A DNA stretch of 64,000 nt from Hoyosella rhizosphaerae (GCF_014643175.1 NZ_BMJH01000001.1:1474209-1538208), one strand, 5' to 3'. Shown: positions 7,647 to 40,338, counted from the stretch's first letter. Translations and numbers: made by a program. The notes: generated from the letters alone by a model not told the origin.

Positions 7647-7663
7647 GGCGCTACTGTGGAGAG

Positions 7664-19238: not shown

Positions 19239-19965
19239 GGTCCGGTTCCTGTCGTGAGCTAAGTTCTGGGCGCTTGTTCTGCATTCTCCTCGCCGCATAC
19301 CCGCCACCCACAGTGAGCACAATGAACGCGGCAATCGCTGCCGCAAATGGCCACGACAATGGTTGGGTGCCGAAAGCGCCCAACGCGACGTAGCTCATCA
19401 CTCCTGGGATTATGCCGAGCGCTGTGCCGAGGAAATAATGCCGGAACCGGATTCCACTGATCCCGCCCGCGTAATTGACCAGCCAAAACGGGAAAAGCGG
19501 CACGAGGCGGACGATAAGAACGGAGGCAAACCCTCGACGGCGCAGAAAGAGCACTGCAGTGGCGGTTTTGGGGCCCCCGTAGCGGCTCAGCGCATCAGCG
19601 CCGAGGTGCCTGCCGAGAATGTAGGCCAGTGACGCCGAGAGCATTGCCGCAGCAAACACCGCAGCGATTCCCCCCGCGAACCCGAACAGCACTCCCGCCG
19701 CAATGCTGAGCACACTTGCCGGGGTTGGTGTGAGACTTAGCCCCGCGTAGGCGAGAACAAACACCAGGACCCCCACAAGTCCGGCGGCGGCCACCCGGGC
19801 ACGAATTTCGTCAGCACTTGGAATATCGACAAACCAAGCGATGACGGCACCGATAATGAGCAATGCCCCCAGGATGGCGAGCTTCACCAGAGGTGACAGC
19901 TTGCGCTCGTTGACATCTTCTTCAGGCACTAAGTTCTCCTCGTAGGGTGAAGCGCTACGGAGCAA
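19231..19965 (-). CDS. DedA/TVP38 family membrane protein
   Basis: A polytopic membrane protein with the DedA core (..RLVPLFPFWLVNYAGG..). TTG at 19965 or GTG at 19929 as start. Confidence 0.75.
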   Translation of the reverse strand: MLRSASPYEENLVPEEDVNERKLSPLVKLAILGALLIIGAVIAWFVDIPSADEIRARVAAAGLVGVLVFVLAYAGLSLTPTPASVLSIAAGVLFGFAGGIAAVFAAAMLSASLAYILGRHLGADALSRYGGPKTATAVLFLRRRGFASVLIVRLVPLFPFWLVNYAGGISGIRFRHYFLGTALGIIPGVMSYVALGAFGTQPLSWPFAAAIAAFIVLTVGGGYAARRMQNKRPELSSRQEPDRV

Positions 19966-24090: not shown

Positions 24091-24978
24091 ATGAAGAGAT
24101 ATCAACACCGCCGAATCATCATCTGGTCGTCAGCATTGGCGCTCTACGTAGCGTGCGTTGTCGGTGTTTTTCTCGACAATCAGATTCTTGTGTGGCTGCT
24201 GGTGATCGGCGTATTCATTCCGGTGGTCATTCTGTATGTGCTTCTGGTTCGCCGGGAACATAAGTATGAGAAGCGATGGCTGATGATGCCTATCGGCGCC
24301 TCACCATCTGAACGCGGCGGTCTCATTGCCGACTCAGCATCTGTGCTCTCCGGCGTCGAACCGCGTAAGCCACCGCCAAAAAGGATCATCAAGGACACAG
24401 TCGAGGCGCTCGCCGCTGTGTTCTTAGCGGTTATTCTCGCGATAGCGACACTTGTCTGGGTTCATTGGCACCCGGAGGACGCGAATGAATTTAGGGCGCT
24501 CTGGACGAGATGCGACCGCGATGCCTCCCAGGTCACCACACTGCCAGTGGACCAGAGCGTGACTGCTAGCGGCGCGACAGTAGTCGTGCATAGAGTGACC
24601 TATAACGTGCCGCAAACCTCCAGAAGGCCGACGAGTGACAGTCGCGGGTACCGCTGCGAGAAGGCAACACTCATTGAGCTATCAGTTCATGACCCATCGC
24701 CGGATCGATTCAACCTCAGCCGGTTCGTTTTCCAGACCGACGATGATCCAGCAACCCTGTCCCCACGGTACAAAACTGACGAGTACGACCACTACATCGA
24801 AACCGAAGACTTACCGCTCCTCCAGTACACCCTCAGCGGCGGAACGAACCAGGAGCGCAGATGGCTCGTTTTCGCAGTAGCCGAGGACAACTCAAACGTG
24901 GGAAGCGTGCTCGTCTTCAACGAATACGAGGAAGATTTGGAGAAAGCATCCATCGCGCTTCCAGATCCACCTGAATAG
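24091..24978 (+). CDS. Hypothetical membrane-anchored protein (lower-GC gene)
   Basis: Two N-terminal TM helices, a third hydrophobic segment, and a ~170-aa C-terminal soluble domain. Local GC is ~50% against ~63% for neighbouring genes. Confidence 0.5.
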   Translation: MKRYQHRRIIIWSSALALYVACVVGVFLDNQILVWLLVIGVFIPVVILYVLLVRREHKYEKRWLMMPIGASPSERGGLIADSASVLSGVEPRKPPPKRIIKDTVEALAAVFLAVILAIATLVWVHWHPEDANEFRALWTRCDRDASQVTTLPVDQSVTASGATVVVHRVTYNVPQTSRRPTSDSRGYRCEKATLIELSVHDPSPDRFNLSRFVFQTDDDPATLSPRYKTDEYDHYIETEDLPLLQYTLSGGTNQERRWLVFAVAEDNSNVGSVLVFNEYEEDLEKASIALPDPPE

Positions 24979-25316
24979 CATCACGACCGCACAGAAAGTG
25001 GGTTGGGGCGGTGCGCCGCTGACGCTGCCATCCCCGCAAAAAGTTCCGGAATACGTTAGGCGCCCCACCGGGTTCCCCAACCGACCGCTCCCACATCCAC
25101 TGGTGGGTGATGCTCAGCCCCGAAACCTGGTGGCGCTACCTAAAATCCGCGTTCAAGGCTAGGCAAGGAAAAATCACCGGGCACCCACTCCAAGCTCCAG
25201 GGCTTGCGATCCTCGGACGGGACGGCACCATCAACTACCTCCACCGCGGCCACACCCTCGGGCACTATCCACCCATCAAGGATGTTCTCGCCACCGTCAC
25301 CAGTTAGCCCGATAAA

Positions 25317-25970
25317 TCAATGGTGGCGGGTTACATACCGAACTCCACCCGCCACCAACACCGCCAACACAGCAACACCCGTCACCACAAAAATCGCCAC
25401 ACCAGGGTTGTTGCGCGCCACCCCACCCGCAACCGCACCAACCGTCACGTAACTACCCACCCAACCCGTACTGCCCGCGCCCCACCACACAAATAACTTA
25501 CGAAACCGCACACCCATCGCACCCGCAGTAAACGGCGTAATGGCAAACAACACCGGCACAAACACCGCCAACATCATCGTCGGGCCACCAGCACTGCCTC
25601 GCAGATACCGCTCAGCCCTGGCCCACCGTGCTTCCCCGACCCAACGGCCCACCGCCGTCCCCTTGATGCGCCACCCCACCGTGTGCCCCAACCAGAACGA
25701 CAACGAGGCGCCAACTAAACACCCCACAACCCCAGCAACCACCACGATCGCCCACTCGCCGAGGCCGGAAACTGTCGTCCCAGCAAGGAGGACTGACACA
25801 TCTCCGGGCAAAAGCAACCCAATCAAAAATGTGGTTTGGACTATCAGCAAAGCGAATAACACAGCCCCAACAACCATTGGGTTTTGGCCAGCGAGCACAT
25901 CAAACATGTCCGCTATACGCTGGCCACCGAAACCCGTCATATCCCCAATGCTTACACGGATCTTCGCCAC
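25317..25970 (-). CDS. DedA family membrane protein
   Basis: 'LLPGDVSVLLAGTTVSG' matches the DedA signature, in a polytopic membrane protein. It lies immediately downstream of the giant ATPase gene on the same strand. Confidence 0.7.
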   Translation of the reverse strand: MAKIRVSIGDMTGFGGQRIADMFDVLAGQNPMVVGAVLFALLIVQTTFLIGLLLPGDVSVLLAGTTVSGLGEWAIVVVAGVVGCLVGASLSFWLGHTVGWRIKGTAVGRWVGEARWARAERYLRGSAGGPTMMLAVFVPVLFAITPFTAGAMGVRFRKLFVWWGAGSTGWVGSYVTVGAVAGGVARNNPGVAIFVVTGVAVLAVLVAGGVRYVTRHH

Positions 25971-26012
25971 ATGCGCGCGGGAATCTAGACCTCGGGCGGA
26001 GTAGAAAACTTC

Positions 26013-29000
26013 CTATTCCGCAGAGTTTGCTCGCAATGCCGCTTCGATTCCGCCTACGCGATCGGCAAGCAAACCAACGGCCCCGACCGCGCGCGCCATC
26101 GGGTCGTCTTCGGCACCACCCAACGCTTGAGCACGCAGATAGCCCGCCTTCACGTCCGCCCACCGCTGCTGTTGTTGGTCCGTCAGCCGACCTCGCAGTT
26201 CGCCCAGCTTGAGCAGGTTTGCTTCGGCTCCGGCGGTGAGTGTTTGGGCTTCGCCCAAATAGTGGTCGTCGATGATCGCTTCGAGCTCTTCTTGATTCAG
26301 CACTGGCGAAATGCGTTCGGCTAGCTTCGCCATGTTGCGGTAGGAACCTTGCAGCTGGAATGGCGGTTCGGTGCGGTTGGCTTCCGCTGTCGCAGCCGAG
26401 GCAATGTATGTCTGGTTGACGGCCAGCAACGTCTTTTGGACGTGGATCATTTTTTGGAGCACGGCCAGGATTTCGTCGAGTTCAGTTGCGGAGTACGGGT
26501 GAGCCAGCTGGTCTGGCTGCACGGTGGTGTCGCCCTGCGCAAGCCTGATGAGCAACCCTAGGTCGCCACGTTCACGGGTAGAAAGTGGAGTGAGTACGGG
26601 GTTTGATGTGAGGGCGTTTTCTAGGTAGCTAAGGGCGAAGAGTTCTTCTTTGCCAGAGAGGACGTCGCCGAGGTTCCAGACGTCGGCGCGGTTCGCGAGC
26701 ATGTCGGGGATGCGGAAGCGTTTACCCTGCTCGGTGTAGGGGTTACCTGCCATGCATACCGCGAATCGCTTGCCCCGCATGTCATAGGTGCGGGTTCGAC
26801 CGTTCCATACACCTTCCATTCGCCGCTGAGCGTCACAGAGGGAGATGAACTTTTGCAGCAGTTCTGGGTTGGTGTGTTGAATGTCGTCGAGGTAGAGCAA
26901 TACGTTGTTGCCCATTTCGAGGGCAAAGTTGATTTTTTCGACCTCTTGGCGGGCAGTCGCGTTGGGTGCGTCGGCGGGGTCCACTGAGGTGACATAGTGC
27001 CCCAAGGCAGGGCCGTTGACCTTCACGAACACGACCCCGAGCCGATTCGCGACGTACTCCATCAGGGTTGTCTTGCCATATCCGGGCGGTGAAATGAGGA
27101 GAAGAAGCCCCGATTGATCGGTGCGGCGGCTGTCGCCTGTGGTGCCGAGCTGTTTGGCGAGGTTGTCACCGATAAGCGGCAAGTACGCTTCGTCGAGGAG
27201 CCTGTTTCGAACGAAGCCACTCATGACGGTGGGTTTGTATTCGTCGAGACGCAGTCTGCGACGTTCAGCGGCAACGAGCTCATTGCGTCGCTGCTGGAAG
27301 TGCCGGAACCCTGGGACGCGATGTGCACGGAAGCTTCGAGTGCGGGCGAGAAGTTCATCGAGCCTGAAGGTGAGTTTCCGGCTAGCTATACGCGGGTGTG
27401 CGCCGAGCATCGGTTCGGCGGTGCCGTCGAGTGAGGCCGCGGATTCGTATCTCTCAGTGCTGGTGCCGCATACTTCGATCGCGATGGCTTCAGCGAGGTC
27501 ATGTGCGTGTTCCGTGTCGCCTTCGGAGGCAAGGTAGGCGGACAGCCATGCACGGACGAGTTGGAATCGCGCTGTGGTGTCGTCACCGAGTGCGCGCAGG
27601 TCTGCGTCGTAGTCGTGGCGTGACTTCGCTGCGGATCCGCCTAATGCCCGGTGGAACCTGTCGACGAGTGTGCGAGCGCCGACGCTGGTGACGAATCGTG
27701 CGGTGCCGCTGGCTAATTCTTCGAGGAGGTACTCGCCGATGAGTTCGGTGTCCAACGCGCTGTAGGGCAATTCTGAGTCGGCGATGAACTGTTGAGCTGC
27801 GGTCGCAAGTTCTGCTGCGAGGGCGTCGATTTCTTCGGTTCGTCCAAACATGGCGCGAGCACGTGAGAGTGACGCCGCCCGCCTGGTCCACCGCGTTTGT
27901 GCATCGCTTTGGGCGCCGTATGTCCAGAATATTTGGGCGGCTGCTCGCGCTTCCGGCGGGTAACGCAGTAGCCCAGCCCCCGCGTAGAGACGCATGATTT
28001 CGGCGAGGATGCGGGTGGTGTCGTGATCGTGGACGCCTCGCTCGTATCCTTCGTCATATCGAGTTTCTGCGGCTCGCCGAACGACGTTGGATAGTTCATT
28101 GTCATCCACTGCAGTTTCGATGAGGGTGTCGACTGTGCCCGCCGACACTGCCTCGGCAAGCAGCAGTGATGCCAAGTATTCGCCGCGGTATACCTGCGGC
28201 GTTTCGGAGACCAGCAGCTGGTCCCAGTACGGCTTGGTGGCGGCGAACTCTGGGTCACCGACATCGGAGCGGTAGTCGGTTCCGGTGACGGCAAAGGACA
28301 TCGCGGTAGAACCATCGACGGTGTGTGGCACGAGCGTGAGGTCGATGGCTTGGGTGTTGACAGCGAACTGGTGTCGCCCAAGCTTGATGGTGTCCCCACC
28401 TGCGCCGTAAAGGTCCTGCCGATCGCGAAGTGCGCGGCCCGCTTCCTGCCGCGCAGCCTTAATGCGGCCGTCGATTTCCTCTGCTCGGACAGTGTCGCCG
28501 ATTCCTCGGAGCTCTCCCGCGAGGCTTCGAAGTTTGGCGACCATAGGGTCTGATGCGAAGTAGGTATTGACCTCGTCGACGGTGTCCATTCCCGACACTC
28601 GACGGGTGACGGACCCGAGGATTCGTTGGGCCGAGTCGACGAGGCGATCTGCGCGGCGTGATCGATCGTCAAGCAGGGCCTGTTTGCGGGAGGAGAAAGC
28701 CTCGTAGACGTCTTCGCGTTTGGTGCTGAGTTCGTCGAGAAAGTCGTCGAACTCACTGAAGCGCGATTCGAGGTTCTCCAGCTGGAGAAGGAGTCGTCCC
28801 AGCTGCTCGTCACAGGCGTCCGGGGTGTCCGCGACGGCAAGCGCCCCGGTGATTGCTTGTCCGAGTAGGCCAAACTCCGCGGCGAATTCCGCGCGCCCTT
28901 CCCTGGTGAGGAGTTCTTTCCTGCGAGACTCAACGGTGGCGCGGGCACGGTTTACACCGGCAATGACTTCGCTGATGCGCTCAAGAATGTTTGTTCGTAC

Positions 29001-31004
29001 AACGGCATCGCCGATATCGAGTGACGACACAATCTGCGTGACGACACTGAGCCCGTCGGACTGCGCGGCAAGGCGTTCGGTGACTGGTTTCGCTTCCGCG
29101 ACCGACGAGATTGTGTCCGCTTCGTCTATTAGTTCGTCGATGTCTCGGTGAAAGCTGTCGAACGCGTCCTCGCTGCTAAAGAACTCAACCGCGCGGCGTC
29201 CGGAATCGTCCAACGCTTCTTGTAGCTGCTCATCGAGGGTGTCCAATTTGGTGGTATTGACGAATCGGAGATCTCGCAGCGTTACGACGTGGCCTTGCTG
29301 CTTCCGAAGGTCAGCGAGGAGCGTCACCCACCCGTCGGCGGTGCGGGGCGCGCTCCCCCGGCTCATCCTGATGAGTGAGGCAATTTCCTGTTCCGACTTC
29401 TCCACTTGCTGCGCCGCTTGCGCAGTGAGAGCGGATACTTTTTCGAATTCGTCGATGACTCGCTCAGCTGTTGCCCGCAACGCCGAGAGTGGTTCGCCAA
29501 GGTTCCCAAGTTCGGGTTCAGACACCCAATGGTGATTGTCCGCAGTGCGGGCACACGCGGAAATCATGGCCTCAAAAACTGCCGTAGCAGGAGCCATTTC
29601 GTCCACCATGCGGGTGAGTGAAAGACAGTCCGAAATTCCGCGAACAAGTTCAGCGTTGCCGATGCGTTCAAGCGGTCCGGTGCCAACTGGTTGAGCTGCT
29701 GCGTACTCGTCGGACTGGAACGGGGTGTTCCACACCTGCATGGGGTGCACCCTGGTGGGTTCATCCGACACTGCTCGGAAAATCACCAATGTGCCGTCGT
29801 TAAAGAGTGAGTAGCCGTGGCATGGCAGCGGCGTCGCTACCTCTTTGCGAATGACGTTGTACGGCAATAGAAGGGTTCGACCTTCCTTGCGTGCGTGGAA
29901 GACATAAACAACATCTTCCCCGTTGCTCGACCTGATGACGCGTTCGTATTCGAGATCGGCTGTTTCGGTGTCAAAAGTACGAGCAACACCGGTATCGAGG
30001 TAGTACCCGCCCGGGAAGATGATTCCGTGATCTTCGGGGAGCCGACGACATGCCTGCCCAATGCCATCGAGGCGTGCAATGTCATCTGTTCGCGTATTGA
30101 AAACCAGGTAGCGCCATGTTTTTTCGTTGTATGGCTTAATCTTCAGCAGTATCAGCGGGCCGACGGTGGCATAGTGCACATCGGCATCAGCGAGACTCTG
30201 CAAGGGCTCATCGACTGGCTCGCGATATATCCCCTCACCAGATTCGGTGTTGTCTTCAATTTTGATGGTGAGATACCCACCAAGAGTTTCGACGAAGACT
30301 TTGTCCTTGATCGAGATGTGTGGGTGTCGACCGAGTACGTGGTTATCACGTGTGGTTTCGATCCATTCAAAATCATGCTGGGCTGGGAACTGGTGATCCC
30401 GTTCACCGCGATTGTCGTGGTACTTCAAAGTGCCATCGCTGGCAATGTTCCAGCGCAGAACCCTGATGTCTTCGGTACGCGCCCCGGTCTGGAAAACAGC
30501 GAGAAGCTTTCCCTCCACTCGCCGCAATTGCATCAGCCGCGTTTCCCGGTAGTACCGGTAAAGCTCAGAGAAGTGTCGAATAAACGAAGGATCGTCTAGC
30601 AGCCCCGGCGCTTCGTTAGTCGCATCGCTGAAGCTAAAGGTGTCGCCGTCGCGTTCAAAACGGTGAAGCGAGAAAACGTCGCTGATGGTGGTTTCAGGTT
30701 TGAGGCCAATAAAAACGTTGTAGCCAAAAAGCATCACCCCACCGTCGGCAGCACCTTTTGCTGGTAAAGCGACGATGTCACGGGGGATGCAGTTGTTTTC
30801 GGTGCGGATACGTTCGGCACCGACAAGTGAGAAGTCACTGCCACCGAAGACCTCGATCCGGCGCGTGTTGAGCGCCTGAGCGCGGCGTGACAACTCTGCT
30901 GCGTGCTCTGCCAGCCGCCCCCGGAGGACCTCGTACGTGCCACCATCGAGATTCGCGCTGCTCTCGTTGCTGCTGTCCTCGGAGTTGCTGTGTGCCGAAG
31001 TCAT
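26013..31004 (-). CDS. Giant (1663-aa) protein with C-terminal MoxR/AAA_5-like AAA+ ATPase domain, long helical middle region and beta-rich N-terminal region; function unknown
   Basis: ATG at 31004 overlaps the flotillin stop (ATGA). Walker A 'LLLISPPGYGKTTLMEY', Walker B 'NVLLYLDDIQH', and a sensor/arginine region 'FAVCMAGNPYTEQGKRFRIPDMLANRADVWNL' sit near residues ~1330-1480. Residues ~480-1250 are predicted helical and E/R/A/L-rich. The N-terminal ~450 aa are beta-rich. Confidence 0.85.
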   Translation of the reverse strand: MTSAHSNSEDSSNESSANLDGGTYEVLRGRLAEHAAELSRRAQALNTRRIEVFGGSDFSLVGAERIRTENNCIPRDIVALPAKGAADGGVMLFGYNVFIGLKPETTISDVFSLHRFERDGDTFSFSDATNEAPGLLDDPSFIRHFSELYRYYRETRLMQLRRVEGKLLAVFQTGARTEDIRVLRWNIASDGTLKYHDNRGERDHQFPAQHDFEWIETTRDNHVLGRHPHISIKDKVFVETLGGYLTIKIEDNTESGEGIYREPVDEPLQSLADADVHYATVGPLILLKIKPYNEKTWRYLVFNTRTDDIARLDGIGQACRRLPEDHGIIFPGGYYLDTGVARTFDTETADLEYERVIRSSNGEDVVYVFHARKEGRTLLLPYNVIRKEVATPLPCHGYSLFNDGTLVIFRAVSDEPTRVHPMQVWNTPFQSDEYAAAQPVGTGPLERIGNAELVRGISDCLSLTRMVDEMAPATAVFEAMISACARTADNHHWVSEPELGNLGEPLSALRATAERVIDEFEKVSALTAQAAQQVEKSEQEIASLIRMSRGSAPRTADGWVTLLADLRKQQGHVVTLRDLRFVNTTKLDTLDEQLQEALDDSGRRAVEFFSSEDAFDSFHRDIDELIDEADTISSVAEAKPVTERLAAQSDGLSVVTQIVSSLDIGDAVVRTNILERISEVIAGVNRARATVESRRKELLTREGRAEFAAEFGLLGQAITGALAVADTPDACDEQLGRLLLQLENLESRFSEFDDFLDELSTKREDVYEAFSSRKQALLDDRSRRADRLVDSAQRILGSVTRRVSGMDTVDEVNTYFASDPMVAKLRSLAGELRGIGDTVRAEEIDGRIKAARQEAGRALRDRQDLYGAGGDTIKLGRHQFAVNTQAIDLTLVPHTVDGSTAMSFAVTGTDYRSDVGDPEFAATKPYWDQLLVSETPQVYRGEYLASLLLAEAVSAGTVDTLIETAVDDNELSNVVRRAAETRYDEGYERGVHDHDTTRILAEIMRLYAGAGLLRYPPEARAAAQIFWTYGAQSDAQTRWTRRAASLSRARAMFGRTEEIDALAAELATAAQQFIADSELPYSALDTELIGEYLLEELASGTARFVTSVGARTLVDRFHRALGGSAAKSRHDYDADLRALGDDTTARFQLVRAWLSAYLASEGDTEHAHDLAEAIAIEVCGTSTERYESAASLDGTAEPMLGAHPRIASRKLTFRLDELLARTRSFRAHRVPGFRHFQQRRNELVAAERRRLRLDEYKPTVMSGFVRNRLLDEAYLPLIGDNLAKQLGTTGDSRRTDQSGLLLLISPPGYGKTTLMEYVANRLGVVFVKVNGPALGHYVTSVDPADAPNATARQEVEKINFALEMGNNVLLYLDDIQHTNPELLQKFISLCDAQRRMEGVWNGRTRTYDMRGKRFAVCMAGNPYTEQGKRFRIPDMLANRADVWNLGDVLSGKEELFALSYLENALTSNPVLTPLSTRERGDLGLLIRLAQGDTTVQPDQLAHPYSATELDEILAVLQKMIHVQKTLLAVNQTYIASAATAEANRTEPPFQLQGSYRNMAKLAERISPVLNQEELEAIIDDHYLGEAQTLTAGAEANLLKLGELRGRLTDQQQQRWADVKAGYLRAQALGGAEDDPMARAVGAVGLLADRVGGIEAALRANSAE

Positions 31005-33031
31005 GGCTTCTTAGTCGATAGCGGTGTGTCTGCCACCCCAAGCTTCCGGGCGCCCGCGAGTAGTTCTTCGAACTTTGCTTTTTCCGGCCCGCCCGACTTA
31101 ATAAGCTTGGCGAGTAGCGCCGATACAGTGAGGTTCTTGATGTCCTCGGTACCGGCTGCCGAGATTGCTTGCGCCATGTCTTCCGAGAAGCTTTGTGACC
31201 CGTCGAGCCAGTCGTGGCCCAGTCGTTGCGCCACTTCAGAGTTGTTGACGAAACCGTCGACGCTCTTGCCCATAGCGATCGAGCCCATCAGACGGTCGAA
31301 GAAGACGCTTTCACCACCAACAATGCTGATGTTCGCTTCTTTCAGCCCTGCGACCAGCACTGCAGCCTGGTGCTCTGCAACTTGGCGCTGAACATCGATG
31401 CTCGCGAGTTGGATGTCCTTCTCCATCTCCAGCCGAAGACGGTATTCCTCGTGCTCACGGGTGGCAGCATCAAGCTTGGCCATAGCATCGGCCTTCTCCG
31501 TAAGACCTTCAGCTTCGGCTTTGAGCTTTTCGCGGACTGCATCCGCTGAGGCGAGGGCTTTCTCCCGGTCGACCTGCGCTTCCGCACGGCCCACTTTCTC
31601 AATGGCCTCGGCGTTTCGTTCGCGAACCTGGACATCAGCAAGGCCAGAAGCCGCGGTTTCAGCTTGCGTGCCTTCAGCGAGGCGGATCTTTGCGCGGGCT
31701 TCAAGTTCAGCGGATTGCTGCGCTGCCTCTGCGAGGGTGAGACGTTCCTTCGCTTTGTGCTTCGCCGCAACTTCTGCGGCTTCAGCCGACTTGATGTCCT
31801 TGACTAGATTTTGCTGCGCTTCAGCTTCAGCCCGAATGATGATGGCCTGGCGGTCACGTTCAGCCGCTTCCACCGCACGCAGTCGATTGATACTTTCTTC
31901 CTGCTCAGCAACAGTTTTGTCCACTGCAATGCGTTCGCGCATTGCTTCGGAAACCCCACGACGTTCTGTCTCGACCTCTCGGTCTTTCGCGATCCGTTGC
32001 AGTTCCGTCTCACGTTCACGGTTAATTACCTCAAGCAGACGATCCTTCTCAATCCGCTCGGACTCAACGGCAATAACACGTTCGCGGTTCTTCTCCGCAA
32101 CCGCGATTTCGCGGAACTGGTTCTCGGCTTGAACGCCAACCTGCTCGTCGGTGCGGATACGTGCCGTTTCGGACTTGAGGCGCTCTTCGGCTTGAACTCG
32201 CTTCGTCTCAGCTTCTTCGCGCGAAATAACGGTGTTGATTTCACGTTGCTGCTTCGCTTCAGCATCAGCTTGCTGACGCTCTAGTTCGAGGATCGCCTCG
32301 CGGGCTTCTACGTCCTGGCGCTTGATTTCTTTTTCTTCGTTGCGCCGAAAATCGTTCGTGCGAACATTTTCGATGGCCGTAAGCTCAGTGATCTTTCGGA
32401 TGCCCTGCGCGTCAAGAATATTCTTGGCATCGAGCTGCGACATCGGGGTCTGCTCGAGGTAATCGATGGCAGCGTCTTCGAGGCTGTAACCGTTGAGGTC
32501 AGTGCCGATAACCCGGATGATTTGGTCACGGAACTCGTCACGTTTGGTGTAGAGATCTTCAAAATCGAGATGCTTACCAACAGTTTTCAGAGCTTCGGAG
32601 AACTTTGCGTTGAACAGGGTCTGCATCGTATTTTGATCACTCGCACGTTCGGTGCCGATCGCTTGCGCAACCTTAATGACGTCCTCAGCGGTCTTGTTCA
32701 CCCGCACGAAGAAGGTAATACGAATATCCGCACGGATATTGTCGCGACAGATCAGCCCGTCATGCCCAACACGATCAATCTCCATCGTTTTGACGGAGAT
32801 GTCCATCGTTTCGGCCTTGTGGAGGATAGGCAGCACAACAGCACCGGTGAAGGTGACATCGACTGTGCGCAGCTTCGAAATGATGAGCGCGCTGCCCTGG
32901 GGCACCTTTCGGTACATCCGCGTCACCATGAACACCACGGCAAGAACGATGAGTAGGATCGCGGCAAAAACCACGCCCACACTGGTGGCTATCACGTCCA
33001 CAACGGCCCCTTCGTTAAATTTGTCCCGCAA
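31001..33031 (-). CDS. Flotillin / SPFH (band 7) domain protein with extended charged coiled coil (YqiK/FloT-like)
   Basis: N-terminal TM helix, an SPFH core ('...YRKVPQGSALIIS...DISVKTMEIDRVGHDGLICRDNIRADIRITFFVRVN...'), then a ~350-aa E/R/A/K/Q-rich coiled coil and a C-terminal flotillin tail. The start is either TTG 33031 or GTG 33001 (the latter has an AAGGGG RBS). Confidence 0.85.
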   Translation of the reverse strand: MRDKFNEGAVVDVIATSVGVVFAAILLIVLAVVFMVTRMYRKVPQGSALIISKLRTVDVTFTGAVVLPILHKAETMDISVKTMEIDRVGHDGLICRDNIRADIRITFFVRVNKTAEDVIKVAQAIGTERASDQNTMQTLFNAKFSEALKTVGKHLDFEDLYTKRDEFRDQIIRVIGTDLNGYSLEDAAIDYLEQTPMSQLDAKNILDAQGIRKITELTAIENVRTNDFRRNEEKEIKRQDVEAREAILELERQQADAEAKQQREINTVISREEAETKRVQAEERLKSETARIRTDEQVGVQAENQFREIAVAEKNRERVIAVESERIEKDRLLEVINRERETELQRIAKDREVETERRGVSEAMRERIAVDKTVAEQEESINRLRAVEAAERDRQAIIIRAEAEAQQNLVKDIKSAEAAEVAAKHKAKERLTLAEAAQQSAELEARAKIRLAEGTQAETAASGLADVQVRERNAEAIEKVGRAEAQVDREKALASADAVREKLKAEAEGLTEKADAMAKLDAATREHEEYRLRLEMEKDIQLASIDVQRQVAEHQAAVLVAGLKEANISIVGGESVFFDRLMGSIAMGKSVDGFVNNSEVAQRLGHDWLDGSQSFSEDMAQAISAAGTEDIKNLTVSALLAKLIKSGGPEKAKFEELLAGARKLGVADTPLSTKKP

Positions 33032-33046
33032 AAAGTTGGCACTTGT

Positions 33047-33706
33047 TTAAGTAAAGCGCCCCAACGCTGGGTCTCCCATAGCCGGATCCACTGGGCAGAC
33101 CCAAAAGAACTCCCTGTCAAGATCGTAGTCGTACACCAGCGCTGACGCACCGGACCGCAAAAGTCCATGTACTGCATGCTCACGCGACTGCCGGACCTGA
33201 ATGAGCGCGGATGAACCGTCAGGTGAGGTGATCTCCGCTTGCCCAAAATCTGGTGTGACCGTACTGGTGCGAATTATGCAGATTCGACCAACAAAGTCAG
33301 CTCTCGACGGTGGTGGGGTGTGGTGGAAAACGTGCCGCAGCGGTGCGGCGAGCATCCTGGTGATCAACACTCCGGCACCAATGGCAGCGATCAGCACGAC
33401 GAACAATAACGCCGCTAGGCCCCCGCCCGATATGCCGACCGAATCCAGAAAAACGTTTCCAACGATGCTGGTCAGCCACGCAAACACGACGAACAACGAC
33501 AGCGCGACCGTCACCGGAACACCTTCGAGGCCTATGGCCTTCAACGCTCCCCCGCCGTCACCCCCGTCATCCACGGGGTCGCCGTCAAGGAGGTCGAGTG
33601 CGGCCCCGCCGACGAGGACGAGGACCCAATAAACGACGACGACAATCAGGGCAAAAGTAAAAATCACTGCCGGGAAACGCAACGTAGCGTCAAGAAAGTC
33701 ACCCAT
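33047..33706 (-). CDS. NfeD/YqiJ-like membrane protein (OB-fold C-terminus), flotillin partner
   Basis: N-terminal multi-TM region with Gly-rich loops and a C-terminal soluble beta-rich domain ('ICIIRTSTVTPDFGQAEITSPDGSSALIQVRQ') typical of the NfeD short form. Positioned directly upstream of the flotillin as in yqiJ-yqiK / nfeD-floT operons. ATG at 33706; the ORF track has TTG at 33739. Confidence 0.65.
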   Translation of the reverse strand: MGDFLDATLRFPAVIFTFALIVVVVYWVLVLVGGAALDLLDGDPVDDGGDGGGALKAIGLEGVPVTVALSLFVVFAWLTSIVGNVFLDSVGISGGGLAALLFVVLIAAIGAGVLITRMLAAPLRHVFHHTPPPSRADFVGRICIIRTSTVTPDFGQAEITSPDGSSALIQVRQSREHAVHGLLRSGASALVYDYDLDREFFWVCPVDPAMGDPALGRFT

Positions 33707-33835
33707 GCCGCGTGCCCACCCCCTGATTCCCAACACCAAATTGAGCCGTCGCCGTATAGCTGCTCAGCAAAACTGTTCCACAACTACTGTGGTCCCACAA
33801 CACGTACGCGGAAGTCCGTACTGCCTCGAACTGGA

Positions 33836-34357
33836 CTAGTCGTCCCCGTAGTCGCGGACCGGCTTCATAATGTTTGTCGTATTGGTGACAACGCGAATCC
33901 ACAAGTAGGCGAGCGCAAGCGTGGCGCCAAATGCTATGTACAGCGCAACAGAAGGCGTGCGCGCTTGAGGATGGGCGGTGAGTTCAGCCCACAACGCGAA
34001 CATTCCAAACAGCACCCCAAGGCCTTGGGAAAACATCGTCGCCCAGGCTGCGGCCCACCGGTGCGTCACCAACGCAATCAGCGACCCACCGATCCCACCG
34101 ACCACTGCGAGGACAATAAAGATTCGGAGGAAGAAGCTACCCGGAGCGTCAGTGGTCACCTCGGCGGTGAGGATGGTCCACGCTCGCGCCGATTCAGCGA
34201 GCGGAAAGAGCATTGCTACGGCAAGTATCACGACGAGAATCGCGATGGTGACGGCTCTTCCTCCTGTGTTGAACTCACGCTGTACGCGGTGTTCGATCTC
34301 GTCGAAATCGTGTCGGTACGCATCGAACTCATCCGGCATCCCTTGATCGTCCTCCAT
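33836..34357 (-). CDS. Hypothetical small membrane protein (possible first gene of the NfeD-flotillin operon)
   Basis: 4 TM helices after an acidic N-terminus ('MEDDQGMPDEFDAYRHDFDEIEHRV'). Start trimmed to the internal ATG because the ORF track start (34387) abuts the divergent peptidase start. Confidence 0.4.
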   Translation of the reverse strand: MEDDQGMPDEFDAYRHDFDEIEHRVQREFNTGGRAVTIAILVVILAVAMLFPLAESARAWTILTAEVTTDAPGSFFLRIFIVLAVVGGIGGSLIALVTHRWAAAWATMFSQGLGVLFGMFALWAELTAHPQARTPSVALYIAFGATLALAYLWIRVVTNTTNIMKPVRDYGDD

Positions 34358-34389
34358 CAGAACGACACCGGCAACGGGACCCCACACAA

Positions 34390-36381
34390 ATGTCGGCGAG
34401 TGCGGGTATAGATGTAGAAGTGACTAGTGCTGTGAAATCTGGCATCGACTTAGCCCATCGTGATGACTCTGTCCGGCCCCAGGATGATTTGTTCGAATAC
34501 CTGAACGGCCGGTGGCTTGCGGAGCACACTATCCCGGCGGACCGATCGCTCGACGGCGCATTTCGAACACTGTTTGATGCTGCCGAAGAGAATGTCCGCG
34601 CCATCGTGGAAGAGGCCGCTGCCAGCAACGCAGCCCCTGGTACTGATGCCCAACGCATCGGTGACCTATACGCAAGCTTCATGGATACCGAGCTGATCGA
34701 ATCAACCGGACTCGCACCGTTGCATGAAGAATTGTCTCTCATATCCGCAGCTCAGAGCGTCGACGAATTAGCTGGCATCATGGGCCGACTCCAGCGAGAC
34801 GGCACCGGGGGTGCGATCGCTTACTACGTGTATACCGATGCAAAACAAAGCGACCGATACCTCGTGTACCTGTCACAGTCCGGAATTGGGCTTCCAGACG
34901 AGTCGTACTACCGCGATGAAAAGTTCGCCGATCTGCGCGCGAAATACCGGGAACACATTGCCCGCATGTGTGAACTCACAGAAGCCGATGCGGACTCCGA
35001 TGCTGTGTTCGCGCTCGAAGAAAAACTTGCATCGGGGCACTGGGATGTGGTGAAACGCCGTGACGCCGAACTGAGCTACAACCTCTTGACCTGGGACGAC
35101 CTGATTGATCTTGCTCCATCGTTTCCGTGGGCCGACTGGATTACCGGTGTGGGTGGAACAGCGGAGCAGTTTGCTGAGGTTGTTGTCCGACAACCCGACT
35201 TTCTACGCACAATCAGCGCCCTATGGACGTCAGAATCGTTGGACACCTGGAAGTCATGGCTGATGTGGCGCGTGATCAACACGCGTGCCCCTTATCTTCC
35301 CGAAGCGGTTGTTCAGGCGAATTTTGATTTTCACGGCACAACGATGAGTGGGGCGGAAGAAATCCGCTTGCGCTGGAAGCGTGCCGTGTCGCTTGTCGAA
35401 CATTTGCTCGGCGAAGCCGTCGGTAAGCACTACGTTGAACGGCACTTTCCGCCCGGGTCAAAAGAAAAAATGGATGTGCTAGTCAGCAACATCATCGAGG
35501 CTTATCGCCAGTCCATTTCCACGCTCGAGTGGATGAGTCCGCAGACCCGTGAGGCTGCGCTGGAAAAACTTGGCAAGTTCACCCCAAAGGTGGGGTACCC
35601 GGAGGAATGGAAAGACTACTCGGACGTCCACGTTGATCGCGCCGACCTGTATGGGAATGTCCGTCGGGGTTCAGCTGCCGACAACGACCGTGAGTTCGCC
35701 AAATTGGGTGGCCCAGTTGATCGGGGCGAGTGGTTCATGACGCCCCAAACGGTTAATGCCTACTACAACCCCGGTATGAACGAAATAGTCTTCCCGGCTG
35801 CGATTCTGCAACCGCCGTTTTTCGACGCCGATGCTGATGACGCAGCAAACTACGGCGGCATTGGTGCAGTTATCGGCCACGAAATTGGACACGGTTTTGA
35901 CGATCAAGGTTCCAGATACGACGGAGAAGGAAACCTCGTGAACTGGTGGACCGATCAAGATCGTGAAGAGTTTGGTGCGCGCACGGCGGTGTTGATTGCC
36001 CAGTTCAGTGAGTTCGAACCGAAAGAACTGCCCGGCAAAAAGGTGAATGGTGAGTTCACTATCGGTGAAAACATCGGAGATCTTGGCGGGCTGGGGATCG
36101 CGCTGCGCGCATACGAGCTGTCACTCAATGGTGAGGAACCGCCGGTGATTGACGGCCTCACCGGGTTGCAACGAGTGTTTCTAGGATGGGCTCAGGTATG
36201 GCGAACCAAGGTTCGCACCGAGGAAGCGGAGCGGCGCTTAGCAACAGACCCTCACTCGCCACCGGAGTTTCGGTGCAACGGAATTGTCCGGAACCTTGAC
36301 GAGTTTTATGAGGCATTCGACGTAAGCGAAGGTGATGGCTTATACCTACCACCGGAGCAACGCGTGAAAATCTGGTCTTAG
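34390..36381 (+). CDS. pepO: M13 family zinc metallopeptidase (PepO/neprilysin-like endopeptidase)
   Basis: HExxH 'VIGHEIGHGFDDQGS', a downstream 'GENIGDLGG' (ExxxD) and the C-terminal 'W..' motif are characteristic of M13 peptidases. Confidence 0.85.
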   Translation: MSASAGIDVEVTSAVKSGIDLAHRDDSVRPQDDLFEYLNGRWLAEHTIPADRSLDGAFRTLFDAAEENVRAIVEEAAASNAAPGTDAQRIGDLYASFMDTELIESTGLAPLHEELSLISAAQSVDELAGIMGRLQRDGTGGAIAYYVYTDAKQSDRYLVYLSQSGIGLPDESYYRDEKFADLRAKYREHIARMCELTEADADSDAVFALEEKLASGHWDVVKRRDAELSYNLLTWDDLIDLAPSFPWADWITGVGGTAEQFAEVVVRQPDFLRTISALWTSESLDTWKSWLMWRVINTRAPYLPEAVVQANFDFHGTTMSGAEEIRLRWKRAVSLVEHLLGEAVGKHYVERHFPPGSKEKMDVLVSNIIEAYRQSISTLEWMSPQTREAALEKLGKFTPKVGYPEEWKDYSDVHVDRADLYGNVRRGSAADNDREFAKLGGPVDRGEWFMTPQTVNAYYNPGMNEIVFPAAILQPPFFDADADDAANYGGIGAVIGHEIGHGFDDQGSRYDGEGNLVNWWTDQDREEFGARTAVLIAQFSEFEPKELPGKKVNGEFTIGENIGDLGGLGIALRAYELSLNGEEPPVIDGLTGLQRVFLGWAQVWRTKVRTEEAERRLATDPHSPPEFRCNGIVRNLDEFYEAFDVSEGDGLYLPPEQRVKIWS

Positions 36382-36412: not shown

Positions 36413-37576
36413 CTAGGACTTAGTCGCCGTGGACTTTGCCGCCGTGGACGTAGTCGCCGTGGACGTAGACGCCGTGCCACGGAGTTTGGGCGGAAGCTCA
36501 AACAACCACGTCAACCGGGCAGCCATCAGCGCCTTATGCACATACAACGCCAACATCACCGTAGCGACGGTGAGGACTACCGGCGCGATGAACTGAACAA
36601 CAACAAGACCGCCGACAATCGGGGTTTTCATCAACCCAAACACCAAAACGGCGATCAGAATGTCGAGCATCAAGTACACAGGTAGCGTGTTGCGCCCGAC
36701 CTTGTTCAACATCTCGCCCAACCAGGTGCGGACCAGCGCGGAAGCCACAAGCACACCAGCAAGAAGGCCGAACGTGGTGAGGACAATTTTCATCCCAGGA
36801 ACGTCGATGCTCGTACCGCGCAGAACAGCAAAAACTGCTGCGTATGCGGCAATTGCGGCCAAGACCCACGGCACTGAGTTCCGGTTGCTTACCTTGATGA
36901 TCACGCTTCGGGCATGCAACCCAAGCAGGAAGTACACAAAGTACTCAGCGAGGTTGTTCCACGACCAATGCACGATTGTGTAGTACTGGGAAAACACGCT
37001 GAGTGCGATGGCTGCGGAAAACTGAACCCACAACGGCAATTTGCTCATCAACTTTGCGGCCACGGCAAAAACAGCGAGCCCGTATATAAACCACAGAGCA
37101 CTGTTGGGCATATAAATTCCGCCGACAATGTTCTGCCAGGACGCATATCCCCCGTGGCTGACTTCTTGCGGCAAAACATTATGAACCGCAAAAAACACCA
37201 CGAGCCACAGCATGTATAGGTAAAACAGGTGAGCTACGCGGCTTCGCAACATCGTCGGCCATGCCATCGCGATCATGCCCTGCGCAAACAGTCCCGACGC
37301 CACAAAAAACAGTGGCATCCGCACTGGCTGCAGGTATCCATTGATGGTGCGCCACACTTCGGGTGTCATATCGCGGCGCACGAGCATGTCGACAACATGC
37401 AGAAGCACCACTAGGACAATGGTTAGCCCTTTTGCGATATCCACCCATTCAACGCGTGTCTTTCGCGGCGTTGATGTGATTTGAGCGGACGGCGTGACAT
37501 CGGTGCGATCATCGCCTGGCGTGCGGGCGGCTGACGAACTCGTGAGTGCCGACCCTTCCCATGACGATGCTTGCAT
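36413..37576 (-). CDS. Acyltransferase family 3 (OpgC/OatA-like) membrane protein with C-terminal Thr/Ser/Ala repeat tail
   Basis: 'VEWVDIAKGLTIVLVVLLH...MPLFFVASG' matches the PF01757-type signature with ~10 TM helices. Start at ATG 37576 (AGGGAG RBS); the ORF track extends to TTG 37714. The C-terminal 'GTASTSTATTSTAAKSTATKS' is encoded by a 15-bp tandem repeat. Confidence 0.7.
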   Translation of the reverse strand: MQASSWEGSALTSSSAARTPGDDRTDVTPSAQITSTPRKTRVEWVDIAKGLTIVLVVLLHVVDMLVRRDMTPEVWRTINGYLQPVRMPLFFVASGLFAQGMIAMAWPTMLRSRVAHLFYLYMLWLVVFFAVHNVLPQEVSHGGYASWQNIVGGIYMPNSALWFIYGLAVFAVAAKLMSKLPLWVQFSAAIALSVFSQYYTIVHWSWNNLAEYFVYFLLGLHARSVIIKVSNRNSVPWVLAAIAAYAAVFAVLRGTSIDVPGMKIVLTTFGLLAGVLVASALVRTWLGEMLNKVGRNTLPVYLMLDILIAVLVFGLMKTPIVGGLVVVQFIAPVVLTVATVMLALYVHKALMAARLTWLFELPPKLRGTASTSTATTSTAAKSTATKS

Positions 37577-37729
37577 CTGGACAACTCCCTGGTGTTTGAA
37601 CGAAAGCGACTGAACAAACGCCACGAATTTGCTGTGAATTCCGTTAACGCAGCGTTGCGCTCCTCCTCCGTAGGGTAAGGGGTTCGCGGCGAAAACGGAA
37701 TAGGCGTGCAGCAAACGTCACATGATTAC

Positions 37730-39112
37730 CTATGCACTTTCGAGTCCTAATTGTTTCTCAAGTGACACGAGAGCATCGTCGAGGAATGTCAGGAGTTTTT
37801 GTAGGTGCGGCACAGCTTTACGGCACCCCACAATTCCGAAATCCAAAGTTTCGGCGTTACTCGTCAAGGTGATGTTCAACGCAAGCCCATCCATAGCAAT
37901 GGACAGTGGATAAATACCGTCGAGCCGAGCACCGTCCCAGTACAGCGGCTTACGTGGACCCGGCACATTGGAGATCACAATGTTGAAGGCAGGAGGGGTG
38001 TGCGACACAAAACCCGGAACTGGGGCGAGGGCGAGCGGTGAGACCATAAACGCACCTACCGCCATCGCCTGGTTTGGACTCAATCCGGTAAGCATCCGTT
38101 TCGCCTGCTGCATCGAATTCGTGACACATTCGAGACGTTCAAGGGCGTCCGCTCGGTGTGTCCCGAGGCTTGTAAGGACCGCGGTAACGGCATTTCCGCC
38201 GTTTCCATCCTCCACCATGCTGTGCAGCGACACTGGCACCATGGCGATGAGGGGATCCTCCGGCAGTGCATTCTGGCTTATCAGGTAGTCGCGTAACGCA
38301 CCGCCGCACATCGACAGCACAACGTCATTCATCGTGCACCCCGATGCCTTGCCTACCGCCTTTATCCGCGCGATTGACCACGACTGTGCGGCAAACCGGC
38401 GGGCCCCACCAATGGGCACGTTGAAGATGGTTTTCGGCGCGCGGAGCGGAAGCACCATGTCGCGTTCACGGATGGCCTGCCACCCAATGCGCGCTGCGGC
38501 CGGCACACCACCTGCAACATCACCAGCGATCCCGTAGCCGTACTTAGCCAGGCCAACAGGGTTGAATCGCGATCGCTTTCCTTCGAGTGCGCGGCGTTGA
38601 CGTGGCGCAAACGGGGCCGGGCAATCTCGCGCTTCTGGGTCGTCCGACAGAACCGCTTGGAGCGTTTTTAGGGCTGTGACGCCGTCTATTAGTGCGTGGT
38701 GCACCTTTGTATAGACGGCAAACCGGCCATCTTCGAGGCCTTCGACGATTCGCATCTCCCACAAAGGTCGGTGCCGGTCCAGGAGAGAACTGTGCCAACG
38801 TGACGTCGCCGAGAAAAGCTCTCGGATGCGGCCTGGTTGCGGGAGTGCGGTGAGTTGGACGTGGTAGTCGAGATCAATCTCGTCGTCGGTAGCCCACAGT
38901 AAATTTCGTGGAGTGTTAAATGGAGTTCCCGGGCGGCGGCGAAACTTCTCCCCCACTTCAGGGGATTCGATAAGTTGCTCGTAGCGCTCTCGGATAAACC
39001 CCGGTCCCGCACCCTCTGGAGGCGTGAACAACTCGAGCCCCCCGACGTGCATGGGATGTTCCCGGCTTTCGATCGCTAGGAACATGAGGTCCTGCGGCGC
39101 CATCAAACCCAT
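37730..39112 (-). CDS. Wax ester synthase / acyl-CoA:diacylglycerol acyltransferase (WS/DGAT)
   Basis: Catalytic 'HHALIDG' motif, N-terminal 'LMFLAIESREHPMHVGG' and overall ~460-aa length match WS/DGAT (Atf/Tgs) enzymes. Confidence 0.8.
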   Translation of the reverse strand: MGLMAPQDLMFLAIESREHPMHVGGLELFTPPEGAGPGFIRERYEQLIESPEVGEKFRRRPGTPFNTPRNLLWATDDEIDLDYHVQLTALPQPGRIRELFSATSRWHSSLLDRHRPLWEMRIVEGLEDGRFAVYTKVHHALIDGVTALKTLQAVLSDDPEARDCPAPFAPRQRRALEGKRSRFNPVGLAKYGYGIAGDVAGGVPAAARIGWQAIRERDMVLPLRAPKTIFNVPIGGARRFAAQSWSIARIKAVGKASGCTMNDVVLSMCGGALRDYLISQNALPEDPLIAMVPVSLHSMVEDGNGGNAVTAVLTSLGTHRADALERLECVTNSMQQAKRMLTGLSPNQAMAVGAFMVSPLALAPVPGFVSHTPPAFNIVISNVPGPRKPLYWDGARLDGIYPLSIAMDGLALNITLTSNAETLDFGIVGCRKAVPHLQKLLTFLDDALVSLEKQLGLESA

Positions 39113-39264
39113 CTGCGTTCCTCCCCTAGTGTGATGGTCACTTTGCACGCTTTTCTGTTGAAATCTTAATGAAACAACTGTGTAACAAAGTGCCGTACGT
39201 CACGATATATAGATATAGATTACTGTGTACTATCGCGAACTGAGCCGAGGGGAAGTGCGACACG

Positions 39265-40338
39265 ATGGACCGCAACTTGCATCACACCCGCTCATTGCGC
39301 CTCGTCGGAAGTTCGAGCAGCGCAGCAATGGCGCTCGCCCACCCACAACCGCAATCCATCGTTCGCGAAAACTACCTCGGCGCCAGCTTCCAGTCTCAAA
39401 TCCTCGCCACGTCACTGCGATACAGCGTCAAGCCACTGCTGTCAGTATGGGCGAAATGGCCACATCTCCCTTGGCCTACCGGCGCTGTGGATCTGGCTGG
39501 ATCCATGCTTCCTGCGGTCCCCGGAACCCGCTACCGGACGGTGCAGTTGCCCCACTGTCGCGCGGAATGGATCAAAGCCGAAGAAGTCAACGCTCAACGC
39601 GTCGTTCTCTACCTACATGGCGGCGCATTCTTGACCTGCGGGTTGCGCACGCACCGACGCATGGTTTCGCTAATCTCCGCAGCGTCACGTACCCCCGTAC
39701 TCAGCGTCGACTACCGGATGCTGCCCCGCTACACCATTAACGATTCCGTAGAAGATGGAATCGACGCCTACCGGTGGCTCCTTCGTCGCGGATACCGGCC
39801 CGACCAAATCGTCATCGGCGGCGACTCAGCAGGCGGCTACCTGGCCTTCATGGTGACTCTCGCACTTCGTTCACAAGGCATCCCGGTGCCCGCCGGAATC
39901 ATTGCGCTCGCACCGCTGACAAACCTCAATCCAGCATCCAAAATGGCGCACAGCAACGCCAAGACTTGCTCACTGTTTTCGGCCGACGTTATGAACGTCT
40001 TCACCGAATACGCCGACCGCGTCGAACAGCGACTGATGATCAACGGAGCCCCGGGGCCCCGCGTATGCCCCGTAGACAGCGACCTAAGCGGCCTTCCACC
40101 GACGCTCCTCCAAGTAGGGTCCACCGAACTGCTGTTGCCGGACTCCGAAATGATCGCGGACCGACTGGCCCACTACGGTGTTCCCTGCCAGCTGCAGGTG
40201 TGGGACCGACAAGTTCACGTCTTCCAGGCGGCTGCTGGGATCGTCCCCGAAGCAACACGTGCCATCAGGGAAATCGGGCGTTTCGTTCAAGACGCAGTAC
40301 CAGCATCGGCCCGCCACAACGCACGATCACTCGCGTAG
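39265..40338 (+). CDS. Alpha/beta hydrolase fold-3 esterase/lipase (hormone-sensitive-lipase family)
   Basis: Oxyanion 'LYLHGGAF', nucleophile 'GGDSAGG', and a C-terminal His region. ATG at 39265 with GAGGGGAAG upstream. Confidence 0.8.
   Translation: MDRNLHHTRSLRLVGSSSSAAMALAHPQPQSIVRENYLGASFQSQILATSLRYSVKPLLSVWAKWPHLPWPTGAVDLAGSMLPAVPGTRYRTVQLPHCRAEWIKAEEVNAQRVVLYLHGGAFLTCGLRTHRRMVSLISAASRTPVLSVDYRMLPRYTINDSVEDGIDAYRWLLRRGYRPDQIVIGGDSAGGYLAFMVTLALRSQGIPVPAGIIALAPLTNLNPASKMAHSNAKTCSLFSADVMNVFTEYADRVEQRLMINGAPGPRVCPVDSDLSGLPPTLLQVGSTELLLPDSEMIADRLAHYGVPCQLQVWDRQVHVFQAAAGIVPEATRAIREIGRFVQDAVPASARHNARSLA

Follow-up and report, generated by a model that had tools for sequence, protein, structure and literature searches.

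Why should a bacterial flotillin gene be followed, with the two reading frames overlapping, by a gene for an AAA+ ATPase of 1663 amino acids (aa)? The question is raised by a stretch of 64,000 nucleotides (nt) from Hoyosella rhizosphaerae (GCF_014643175.1, NZ_BMJH01000001.1:1474209-1538208), the whole of which is called the window below, with positions counted from its first letter. A first-pass annotation had read five consecutive minus-strand genes of this DNA as an NfeD-flotillin operon extended by the giant protein, and had proposed that they form an undescribed membrane-associated system. All five open reading frames (ORFs) were recovered. Comparison with other genomes revealed, however, that the conserved unit consists of three genes, encoding a YqiJ-like membrane protein, a flotillin and the giant ATPase, hereafter the trio. 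Their positions in the window are:

33047-33739, minus strand: YqiJ/YuaF-like small membrane protein, 230 aa as the longest ORF (ORF and family alignment/profile)
31001-33031, minus strand: YqiK-type flotillin, 676 aa (Pfam Band_7 at residues 42-185, E 1.2e-7)
31001-31004, minus strand: ATGA overlap of 4 nt between the flotillin TGA and the giant-gene ATG (read in the sequence as ...GCC ATG A...)
26013-31004, minus strand: DUF3686-family giant protein, 1663 aa, gene of 4992 nt (Pfam DUF3686, DUF7902, AAA/AAA_5)

The YqiJ-like protein probably starts at 33706, giving 219 aa as in the gene call, and the flotillin probably at 33001, giving 666 aa.

Conservation of this arrangement was measured in four sets of loci: 80 from genomes, 80 from metagenomes seeded from distant Bacteroidota-type members, individual distant representatives, and three plasmid loci. 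The sampled loci were the best-scoring 80 of each scan, and the most divergent branches are thinly sampled. For 144 loci of the first three sets, at least 2.5 kb of DNA was available upstream of the giant gene. In 141 of these 144 loci the gene immediately preceding the giant gene, in the same orientation, encodes a flotillin homologue (phmmer E values of such homologues 1e-180 to 1e-300), and a YqiJ-like homologue lies upstream of the flotillin in 127 of the 141. Outside this count, the Dokdonia locus L175 and all three plasmid loci likewise had a flotillin. With 141 of 144 loci carrying it, the adjacency of flotillin and giant gene is not due to chance. The linkage claimed at the outset was thus borne out: homologues of the giant gene are, as a rule, not found apart from flotillin. 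The stop/start overlap is real at Hoyosella but uncommon elsewhere, being of 4 nt in only 20 of 78 scored loci and of 1 nt in one, while gaps, mostly of at most 150 nt, separate the two genes in the remainder. About eleven Streptomyces loci (L048, L052, L059, L060, L064, L065, L072, L075, L078, L080, L081) keep the flotillin and the giant gene and have no recognisable YqiJ-like ORF.

The two outer genes of the proposed five-gene operon are:

33836-34387, minus strand: Rv2732c-family protein with four transmembrane segments, 183 aa (four hydrophobic segments; NCBIfam NF050115, E 1.4e-36)
25317-25970, minus strand: DedA/VTT-domain membrane protein, 217 aa (Pfam VTT_dom E 4.7e-13; NCBIfam DedA)

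The giant protein is 100% identical to the entry for H. rhizosphaerae, and assembly GCA_017152025.1 shows the identical order of genes. Homologues of the Rv2732c-family protein, of DedA and of an M13 peptidase lay next to the giant gene at the Hoyosella locus alone among the sampled loci. Neither of the two outer genes recurred at any other locus, and both were rejected as members of the operon. All-versus-all clustering of the neighbourhood ORFs yielded no further conserved partner; what it returned were shadow ORFs within the giant gene and neighbours confined to particular lineages. Since the outer genes do not recur and no other partner emerged, the conserved unit is the three-gene trio, and the Rv2732c-family and DedA genes are local to Hoyosella. 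A promoter and terminator scan of positions 24900-34800 found fewer promoter-like sites than in shuffled sequences and terminator-like sites at background level, and is therefore uninformative for this high-GC actinomycete.

The giant protein is composed of an N-terminal helix, a beta-propeller-like domain, about 800 mostly helical residues, an AAA+ domain and a C-terminal helical domain. The following parts were located:

29529-30896, minus strand: DUF3686 domain, residues 37-492 (Pfam E 1e-218)
28914-29168, minus strand: DUF7902, residues 613-697, within the helical region (Pfam E 1.6e-28)
26625-27137, minus strand: AAA+ core, residues ~1290-1460 (Pfam AAA, AAA_5, AAA_22 and RuvB_N matches)
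27069-27083, minus strand: Walker A motif GYGKT, residues 1308-1312 (motif in alignments)
26883-26888, minus strand: Walker B motif LYLDD, D1373 and D1374 (motif in alignments)

The AAA and AAA_5 matches span residues 1301-1427. No transmembrane segment and, with Pfam, no protease, nuclease, TIR or other effector domain was found, and a sequence search of the PDB returned only P-loop matches. AlphaFold2 models, built on an alignment of 31 sequences, were confident for residues 1-520 (predicted local distance difference test score, pLDDT, of 88) and for residues 840-1663 (pLDDT 88.7). The modelled N-terminus starts with a long helix (residues 18-53), followed by some 28 beta strands (59-426) and a helical bundle, so that the DUF3686 domain is predicted to be beta-propeller-like, with about seven times four strands over residues 59-426 packed on the bundle. 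Its structural matches include the clathrin terminal domain, Vps18, IFT-A and nucleoporins. Residues ~430-1260 are mostly helical in the models, with small beta inserts, in agreement with the long helical spacer that the first-pass annotation had placed before the C-terminal AAA+ domain. Foldseek neighbours of the AAA+ domain were RuvB, NorQ/CbbQ, Cdc48, ClpX, Lon and Vps4, all of them weak (E ~1e-5).

Inspection of alignments of 22, 31 and 14 sequences revealed that the Walker A residues and the two aspartates of Walker B are invariant down to 25-30% identity. The same holds for N1421 and R1439, which, judged by their positions relative to the motifs, are candidates for sensor 1 and the arginine finger, respectively. 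Because the ATPase motifs are invariant over this range, ATP binding or turnover by the giant protein is under selection.

Does this ATPase act in DNA repair, as its database names state ("DNA repair ATPase" at NCBI, "ATPase involved in DNA repair" for Pfam PF12458)? The structural search with the AAA+ domain did place RuvB among its best matches, and the first-pass annotation had itself named a known DNA-repair ATPase as an identity that would overturn its proposal. We consider a repair function most improbable. The RuvB_N match covers only 44 P-loop residues and remains below threshold (20.9 bits versus a cut-off of 27), NCBIfam RuvB equivalogs give 20-22 bits versus about 290 (for example 21.6 versus 282), and the structural score of RuvB equals those of NorQ, Cdc48, ClpX and Lon. 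Moreover, Pfam revealed no DNA-binding or nuclease domain and no SMC or SbcC match in the protein. No repair gene is conserved nearby, the invariant partner being a membrane scaffold, and no paper supporting the name was found. The name probably came from coiled-coil similarity to SbcC/Rad50-type entries; spread over thousands of entries by annotation pipelines, it is probably misleading.

The invariant partner, the 676-aa protein, has an N-terminal transmembrane helix, an SPFH/Band-7 domain, a long Glu/Ala/Arg-rich coiled coil and a C-terminal tail. BLASTP aligned it to Escherichia coli YqiK with an E value of 4e-34 and 26% identity over 455 residues, covering the transmembrane helix, the SPFH domain and the coiled coil. 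The Pfam Flot model gave no match at E<=0.01. Judged by this alignment, the protein is a true YqiK-type flotillin.

Assignment of the small membrane protein came from its family. An alignment of 33 proteins encoded at the same position at other loci displays three transmembrane segments that an acidic linker joins to a C-terminal beta (OB-like) domain, with conserved blocks in TM1 (FPTVLF..YWLLV), TM2 (VP.TV.SL...AW), TM3 and the C-terminus (FVGR.C.IRTG.V...FGQAEV...VQVR...GS.ALI.DYD). The profile of this family matched E. coli YqiJ (hhalign probability 85.5%, E 5.7e-6), the Pfam family PF21001 (YqiJ_N) was matched by two of the 33 homologues, and the Hymenobacter homologue is named DUF1449 by NCBI. 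Only the family profile succeeded: no significant alignment was obtained when the 230-aa protein was compared pairwise with E. coli YqiJ by BLASTP, and the protein had no Pfam match even at E<=10, NfeD (PF01957) included. The earlier description of the protein as NfeD/YqiJ-like therefore holds in its second half. The YqiJ-like assignment is supported by the profile comparison, whereas "NfeD" would apply only loosely, because none of the 33 homologues matches the Pfam NfeD model at E<=0.1.

How widespread is the trio? It was found in actinomycetes, Myxococcus, Corallococcus, Vibrio, Flammeovirga, Chitinophagaceae, Flavobacteriaceae, Hymenobacter and Deinococcus; the named genomes include Actinomycetota, Myxococcota, Bacteroidota, Gammaproteobacteria and Deinococcota. 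Metagenome-assembled genomes with the giant gene are labelled Clostridia, Deltaproteobacteria and Thermoanaerobaculia, the last with no upstream DNA. A word-indexed search returned 6268 homologues of the giant protein, and an exhaustive search with residues 1-1200 as the query gave 1371 clusters at 50% identity (E<=1e-3), the architecture of 1600-1900 aa being kept down to 27% identity. Full-length identity is about 68-70% across actinomycete orders, which would fit a constrained cellular machine. The homologues in Phytohabitans, Pseudonocardia and Actinophytocola (Micromonosporales/Pseudonocardiales) share about 70% identity with the Hoyosella protein, the one Nocardia copy only 60%, and no Mycobacterium or Rhodococcus entry was among the top 120 matches. 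For these reasons the distribution of the gene appears patchy rather than strictly vertical, and suggests some horizontal movement.

Is the system undescribed, as had been proposed? It is not. In a purely computational study, Ravi et al. 2024 (mSystems 9:e00847-23, PMC11237479; preprint 2020) described operons that encode a CesT/Tir-PspA pair together with a flotillin, a YqiJ/YuaF protein with three transmembrane segments and an AAA+ ATPase, as well as "abbreviated operons" lacking PspA. The ATPase, given as beta-propeller-coiled-coil-AAA+, receives one sentence and no link to DUF3686/PF12458 (PMC11237479). Table S3 of the same paper has a row for a Dokdonia donghaensis neighbourhood. Our locus L175, from Dokdonia sp. 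Hel_I_63, a congeneric genome used in place of D. donghaensis DSW-1, matches this row gene by gene: PadR, PspC/Toastrack, an NTF2-like DUF4440 protein, DUF2807, a divergent HTH_3 regulator, CesT_Tir_1, PspA_IM30, a 238-aa protein, Band_7 and a 1625-aa DUF3686 protein. The latter is 74% identical to the Leeuwenhoekiella DUF3686 member used as search query. Since L175 reproduces the row with a DUF3686 protein, the ATPase of Ravi et al. is the DUF3686 family, and the Hoyosella locus is the abbreviated form. The arrangement is therefore already known from comparative genomics, although experimentally uncharacterised, and the Hoyosella trio is a further instance of it. Literature searches on flotillin-NfeD-AAA+ operons and on flotillin in Streptomyces returned nothing relevant, and a paper on ESCRT (PMC10936438) mentions SPFH but not the DUF3686 family.

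The full form of the operon recurred in our samples. Among 46 Bacteroidota-centred metagenome loci with at least 4.5 kb of upstream DNA, 20 carried PspA/IM30 and 19 of these also a gene for a CesT/Tir-like chaperone, in the order CesT, PspA, YqiJ-like, flotillin, giant. The same order was observed in the Chitinophagaceae locus L090, in Dokdonia L175, which additionally adjoins a PadR-PspC/Toastrack unit, and on the Hymenobacter plasmid L178, where a divergent LexA-like regulator is present. On pQBR103, a megaplasmid of Pseudomonas fluorescens SBW25 (L176, NC_009444.1 85112-97641), the trio directly follows, on one strand, a yjf-type PspA operon consisting of genes for PspA/IM30, a rhomboid protease, DUF2491, DUF350, DUF1190 and glutathionylspermidine synthase; this locus joins two PspA operon classes that Ravi et al. 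treated separately.

A gene for TelA (PF05816, a toxic-anion/envelope-stress family) directly adjoins the trio at three distant loci (L086 15177-16304, L092 13001-14221, L094 747-1955) and lies at most 6 kb downstream of the giant gene at two others (L115 18442-19611, L118 18276-19442). We count this adjacency in favour of a role in membrane stress.

What, then, may the trio do? We propose that it is a maintenance or stress module of the cytoplasmic membrane, in which the giant protein is an ATP-driven remodeller of the flotillin scaffold and, where present, of the PspA polymer; the chance that this is right seems to us close to even. The proposal builds on the gene identities, the strict synteny, the repeated fusion with PspA operons, the conserved ATPase motifs and the fold assignments; the 4-nt overlap of flotillin and giant gene counts in its favour as well. 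As expected from the biology of SPFH proteins, the flotillin would be anchored by its N-terminal helix and, with the YqiJ-like protein (three transmembrane segments and OB domain), would form an SPFH scaffold or cage lining the inner side of the membrane. The soluble giant protein would, from its anatomy, oligomerise through its C-terminal AAA+ domain, and its long helical arms would present the N-terminal beta-propellers as binding modules reaching the scaffold. ATP would be spent on building up, taking apart or reshaping the flotillin scaffold, and where a polymer of the ESCRT-III-like PspA/IM30 exists, the giant protein would act on it too, with a logic like that of Vps4 on ESCRT-III. Hoyosella has the abbreviated form, and any PspA partner would be encoded elsewhere in the genome. 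Physical interaction of the three proteins, their oligomeric state, the substrate and the triggering stress are all inferred in this scheme.

A bolder version, which we hold only tentatively, sees the trio as a self-contained machine for membrane remodelling or repair, the giant protein being the dedicated ATP-driven partner of flotillin that would sculpt, seal or turn over damaged patches with or without PspA and so give flotillin cages a defined biochemical job. The propeller and the long alpha-helical arms are reminiscent of eukaryotic coat and tether proteins, here fused to an AAA+ engine.

Several observations weigh against the remodelling proposal. The propeller fold was matched at low TM-scores (template-modelling scores), and structural comparison of the AAA+ domain does not narrow its clade, the Foldseek neighbours being mixed at equal E values of ~1e-5. 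Walker B has an invariant Asp-Asp instead of Asp-Glu in every aligned sequence; this variant, which we take to occur in DnaA-type AAA+ proteins, may point to hydrolysis that is slow and switch-like, and not to a processive motor. PspA was absent from 84 genome and look-up loci with at least 4.5 kb of upstream DNA, save the non-actinomycete L090 and L091. Neither PspA nor CesT homologues were detected in the Hoyosella window (jackhmmer seeded from L090), nor PspA near any actinomycete copy, and for this reason the PspA link is indirect for Hoyosella. In the literature, no experimental study of the trio and no paper mentioning DUF3686 or PF12458 was found. Finally, the giant gene occurs without flotillin at three loci, L087 and the metagenome contigs L171 and L174, which indicates that the ATPase can exist without it. 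At the first of these, in Aureibacter tunicatorum (L087/L088 7253-7825), a 190-aa PRiA4_ORF3-domain protein is encoded in flotillin's place before the giant gene.

The flotillin-less loci count also for a second model, in which flotillin and the YqiJ-like protein confine the ATPase at microdomains, as HflK/C do for FtsH, and its clients are neither scaffold nor PspA but, for example, damaged membrane or envelope proteins, which it would extract, unfold or chaperone. Synteny reveals a partnership, not which of the partners is a substrate; beta-propellers serve quite generally to bind proteins; three of the Foldseek neighbours of the AAA+ domain, Cdc48, ClpX and Lon, are unfoldases; and SPFH cages are established organisers of the AAA+ protease FtsH. 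However, the giant protein is devoid of a protease or effector domain and of a transmembrane segment, no gene for a candidate client is conserved nearby, and the recurrent operon partners are the polymer-forming PspA and a CesT-like chaperone, not substrates. We find this model rather doubtful, while regarding it as the main competitor of the scaffold-remodelling proposal.

Could the trio instead be an anti-phage or conflict system, with flotillin and the YqiJ-like protein sensing membrane perturbation upon infection and the giant NTPase acting as effector or switch? Giant NTPases are common in defence systems, the taxonomy of the trio is patchy, copies exist on megaplasmids such as pQBR103, and the Vibrio alginolyticus trio (L086) lies in an apparent variable island. 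The genes of that island (1-7900 and 13192-14812) encode an IS605-family OrfB, an RNA ligase, an HD/KTI12/AAA_33 kinase-like protein, an R2K-domain protein and an HTH_3-HipA toxin-antitoxin pair, in addition to the TelA mentioned above. Against this, a search of the five proteins with PADLOC-DB v2 gave a sole match, IetA, over 29 P-loop residues (E 0.0017), no relatives were found in 2.9 million viral contigs, and the gene was present on only 13 of 72,556 plasmid records, several of which are chromosome-sized. The Hoyosella window, in which neither mobile nor defence genes occur, is no defence island. Pfam revealed no effector domain, be it nuclease, protease, TIR or another, and for a conflict gene the degree of conservation is unusually high. 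We consider defence very unlikely. A role in membrane stress or remodelling is favoured, because of the recurrent PspA/IM30 fusion, the ordinary chromosomal context, the lack of any PADLOC match beyond that P-loop fragment and the absence of viral copies. The first-pass annotation had suggested a remodelling, defence or stress-response machine: the PspA-operon fusions support its stress or remodelling part, and the PADLOC search, the viral contigs and the window context argue against its defence part.

The rest of the window consists of ordinary metabolic and envelope genes, for a penicillin-binding protein, ABC transporters, xanthine dehydrogenase, allantoicase, GT87, WS/DGAT and a second DedA. 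Two DedA/VTT paralogues lie no more than 7 kb apart, the second adjoining a gene for a CDP-alcohol phosphatidyltransferase (coordinates 19231-19965, 18615-19346 and 25317-25970, all on the minus strand). On the other side of the trio is a lipid-related cluster encoding Acyl_transf_3 (36413-37714), WS/DGAT (37730-39148) and an alpha/beta hydrolase (39265-40338). None of these, whether DedA paralogues, phosphatidyltransferase or lipid-related neighbours, recurs at other loci. Four ORFs had no significant Pfam match: 24091-24978 (plus strand, 295 aa), which sits between the DedA gene and an operon for an ABC sugar transporter, 40374-41159 (minus, 261 aa), 16722-18053 (plus, 443 aa) and 9927-11075 (plus, 382 aa).

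The role of bacterial flotillins is debated, and to our knowledge no energy-consuming partner has been assigned to them. The DUF3686 family gives flotillin a dedicated, near-obligate ATPase partner, in thousands of proteins and several phyla. If the ATPase does remodel such scaffolds, bacteria would have in it a counterpart of the Vps4-type machinery, and it would offer a concrete handle on membrane repair. The trio is thus a good experimental target for finding out what bacterial flotillins do, and its carriers include tractable hosts: Streptomyces, Myxococcus, Vibrio, Proteus, marine Flavobacteriia, and P. fluorescens SBW25 with pQBR103.

How does the Hoyosella locus compare with systems already known? 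Classical flotillin operons, yqiJK in E. coli and yuaF(nfeD2)-floT(yuaG) in Bacillus subtilis, share the order of the trio, a gene for a small transmembrane/OB protein and then flotillin. They stop after flotillin, as annotated in E. coli, whereas in Hoyosella a 5-kb AAA+ gene comes next and overlaps the flotillin stop codon. HflK/C-FtsH offers a functional analogy from established biology: there, as in the trio, an SPFH scaffold has an AAA+ ATPase for its partner at the cytoplasmic membrane. In E. coli, hflKC and ftsH are not in one operon. An FtsH-type partner is, besides, a membrane-anchored M41 protease, while the giant protein has no Peptidase_M41, no FtsH_ext and no transmembrane segment, and is related to it only by the AAA+ fold.

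The first-pass annotation had classed the giant protein as a MoxR-type ATPase. Scores of 28.7 bits for AAA_5 (cut-off 22) and 30 bits for AAA, with NorQ/CbbQ among the best structural matches, would fit the MoxR family (RavA, CbbQ, NorQ). However, the structural match to RuvB is equal or better, the neighbours being mixed, and its Walker B motif and domain architecture differ. No gene for a VWA-domain partner is conserved near the giant gene; one was seen at L001, about 8 kb away, and does not recur. The MoxR label is therefore not established.

PspA/IM30 belongs to the ESCRT-III superfamily. The likeness of the trio to Vps4-ESCRT-III is that of an AAA+ ATPase genetically tied to a membrane-bound polymer former, and Vps4 is among the Foldseek neighbours. 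Compared with Vps4, the giant protein lacks a MIT domain, has a propeller on a long helical arm as its putative substrate-binding module and an Asp-Asp Walker B, and is about four times longer.

The closest counterpart is the operon of Ravi et al., who by comparative genomics reached the same reading and drew the Vps4-ESCRT-III analogy (PMC11237479). With it the Hoyosella locus shares the flotillin with its N-terminal hydrophobic helix, Band_7 domain and YqiK-like coiled coil, the YqiJ-type protein with three transmembrane segments beside it, and the giant protein with its propeller, helical region and AAA+ domain. The full form has in addition the CesT/Tir-PspA dyad and a divergent helix-turn-helix regulator, both of which are lacking at the Hoyosella locus.

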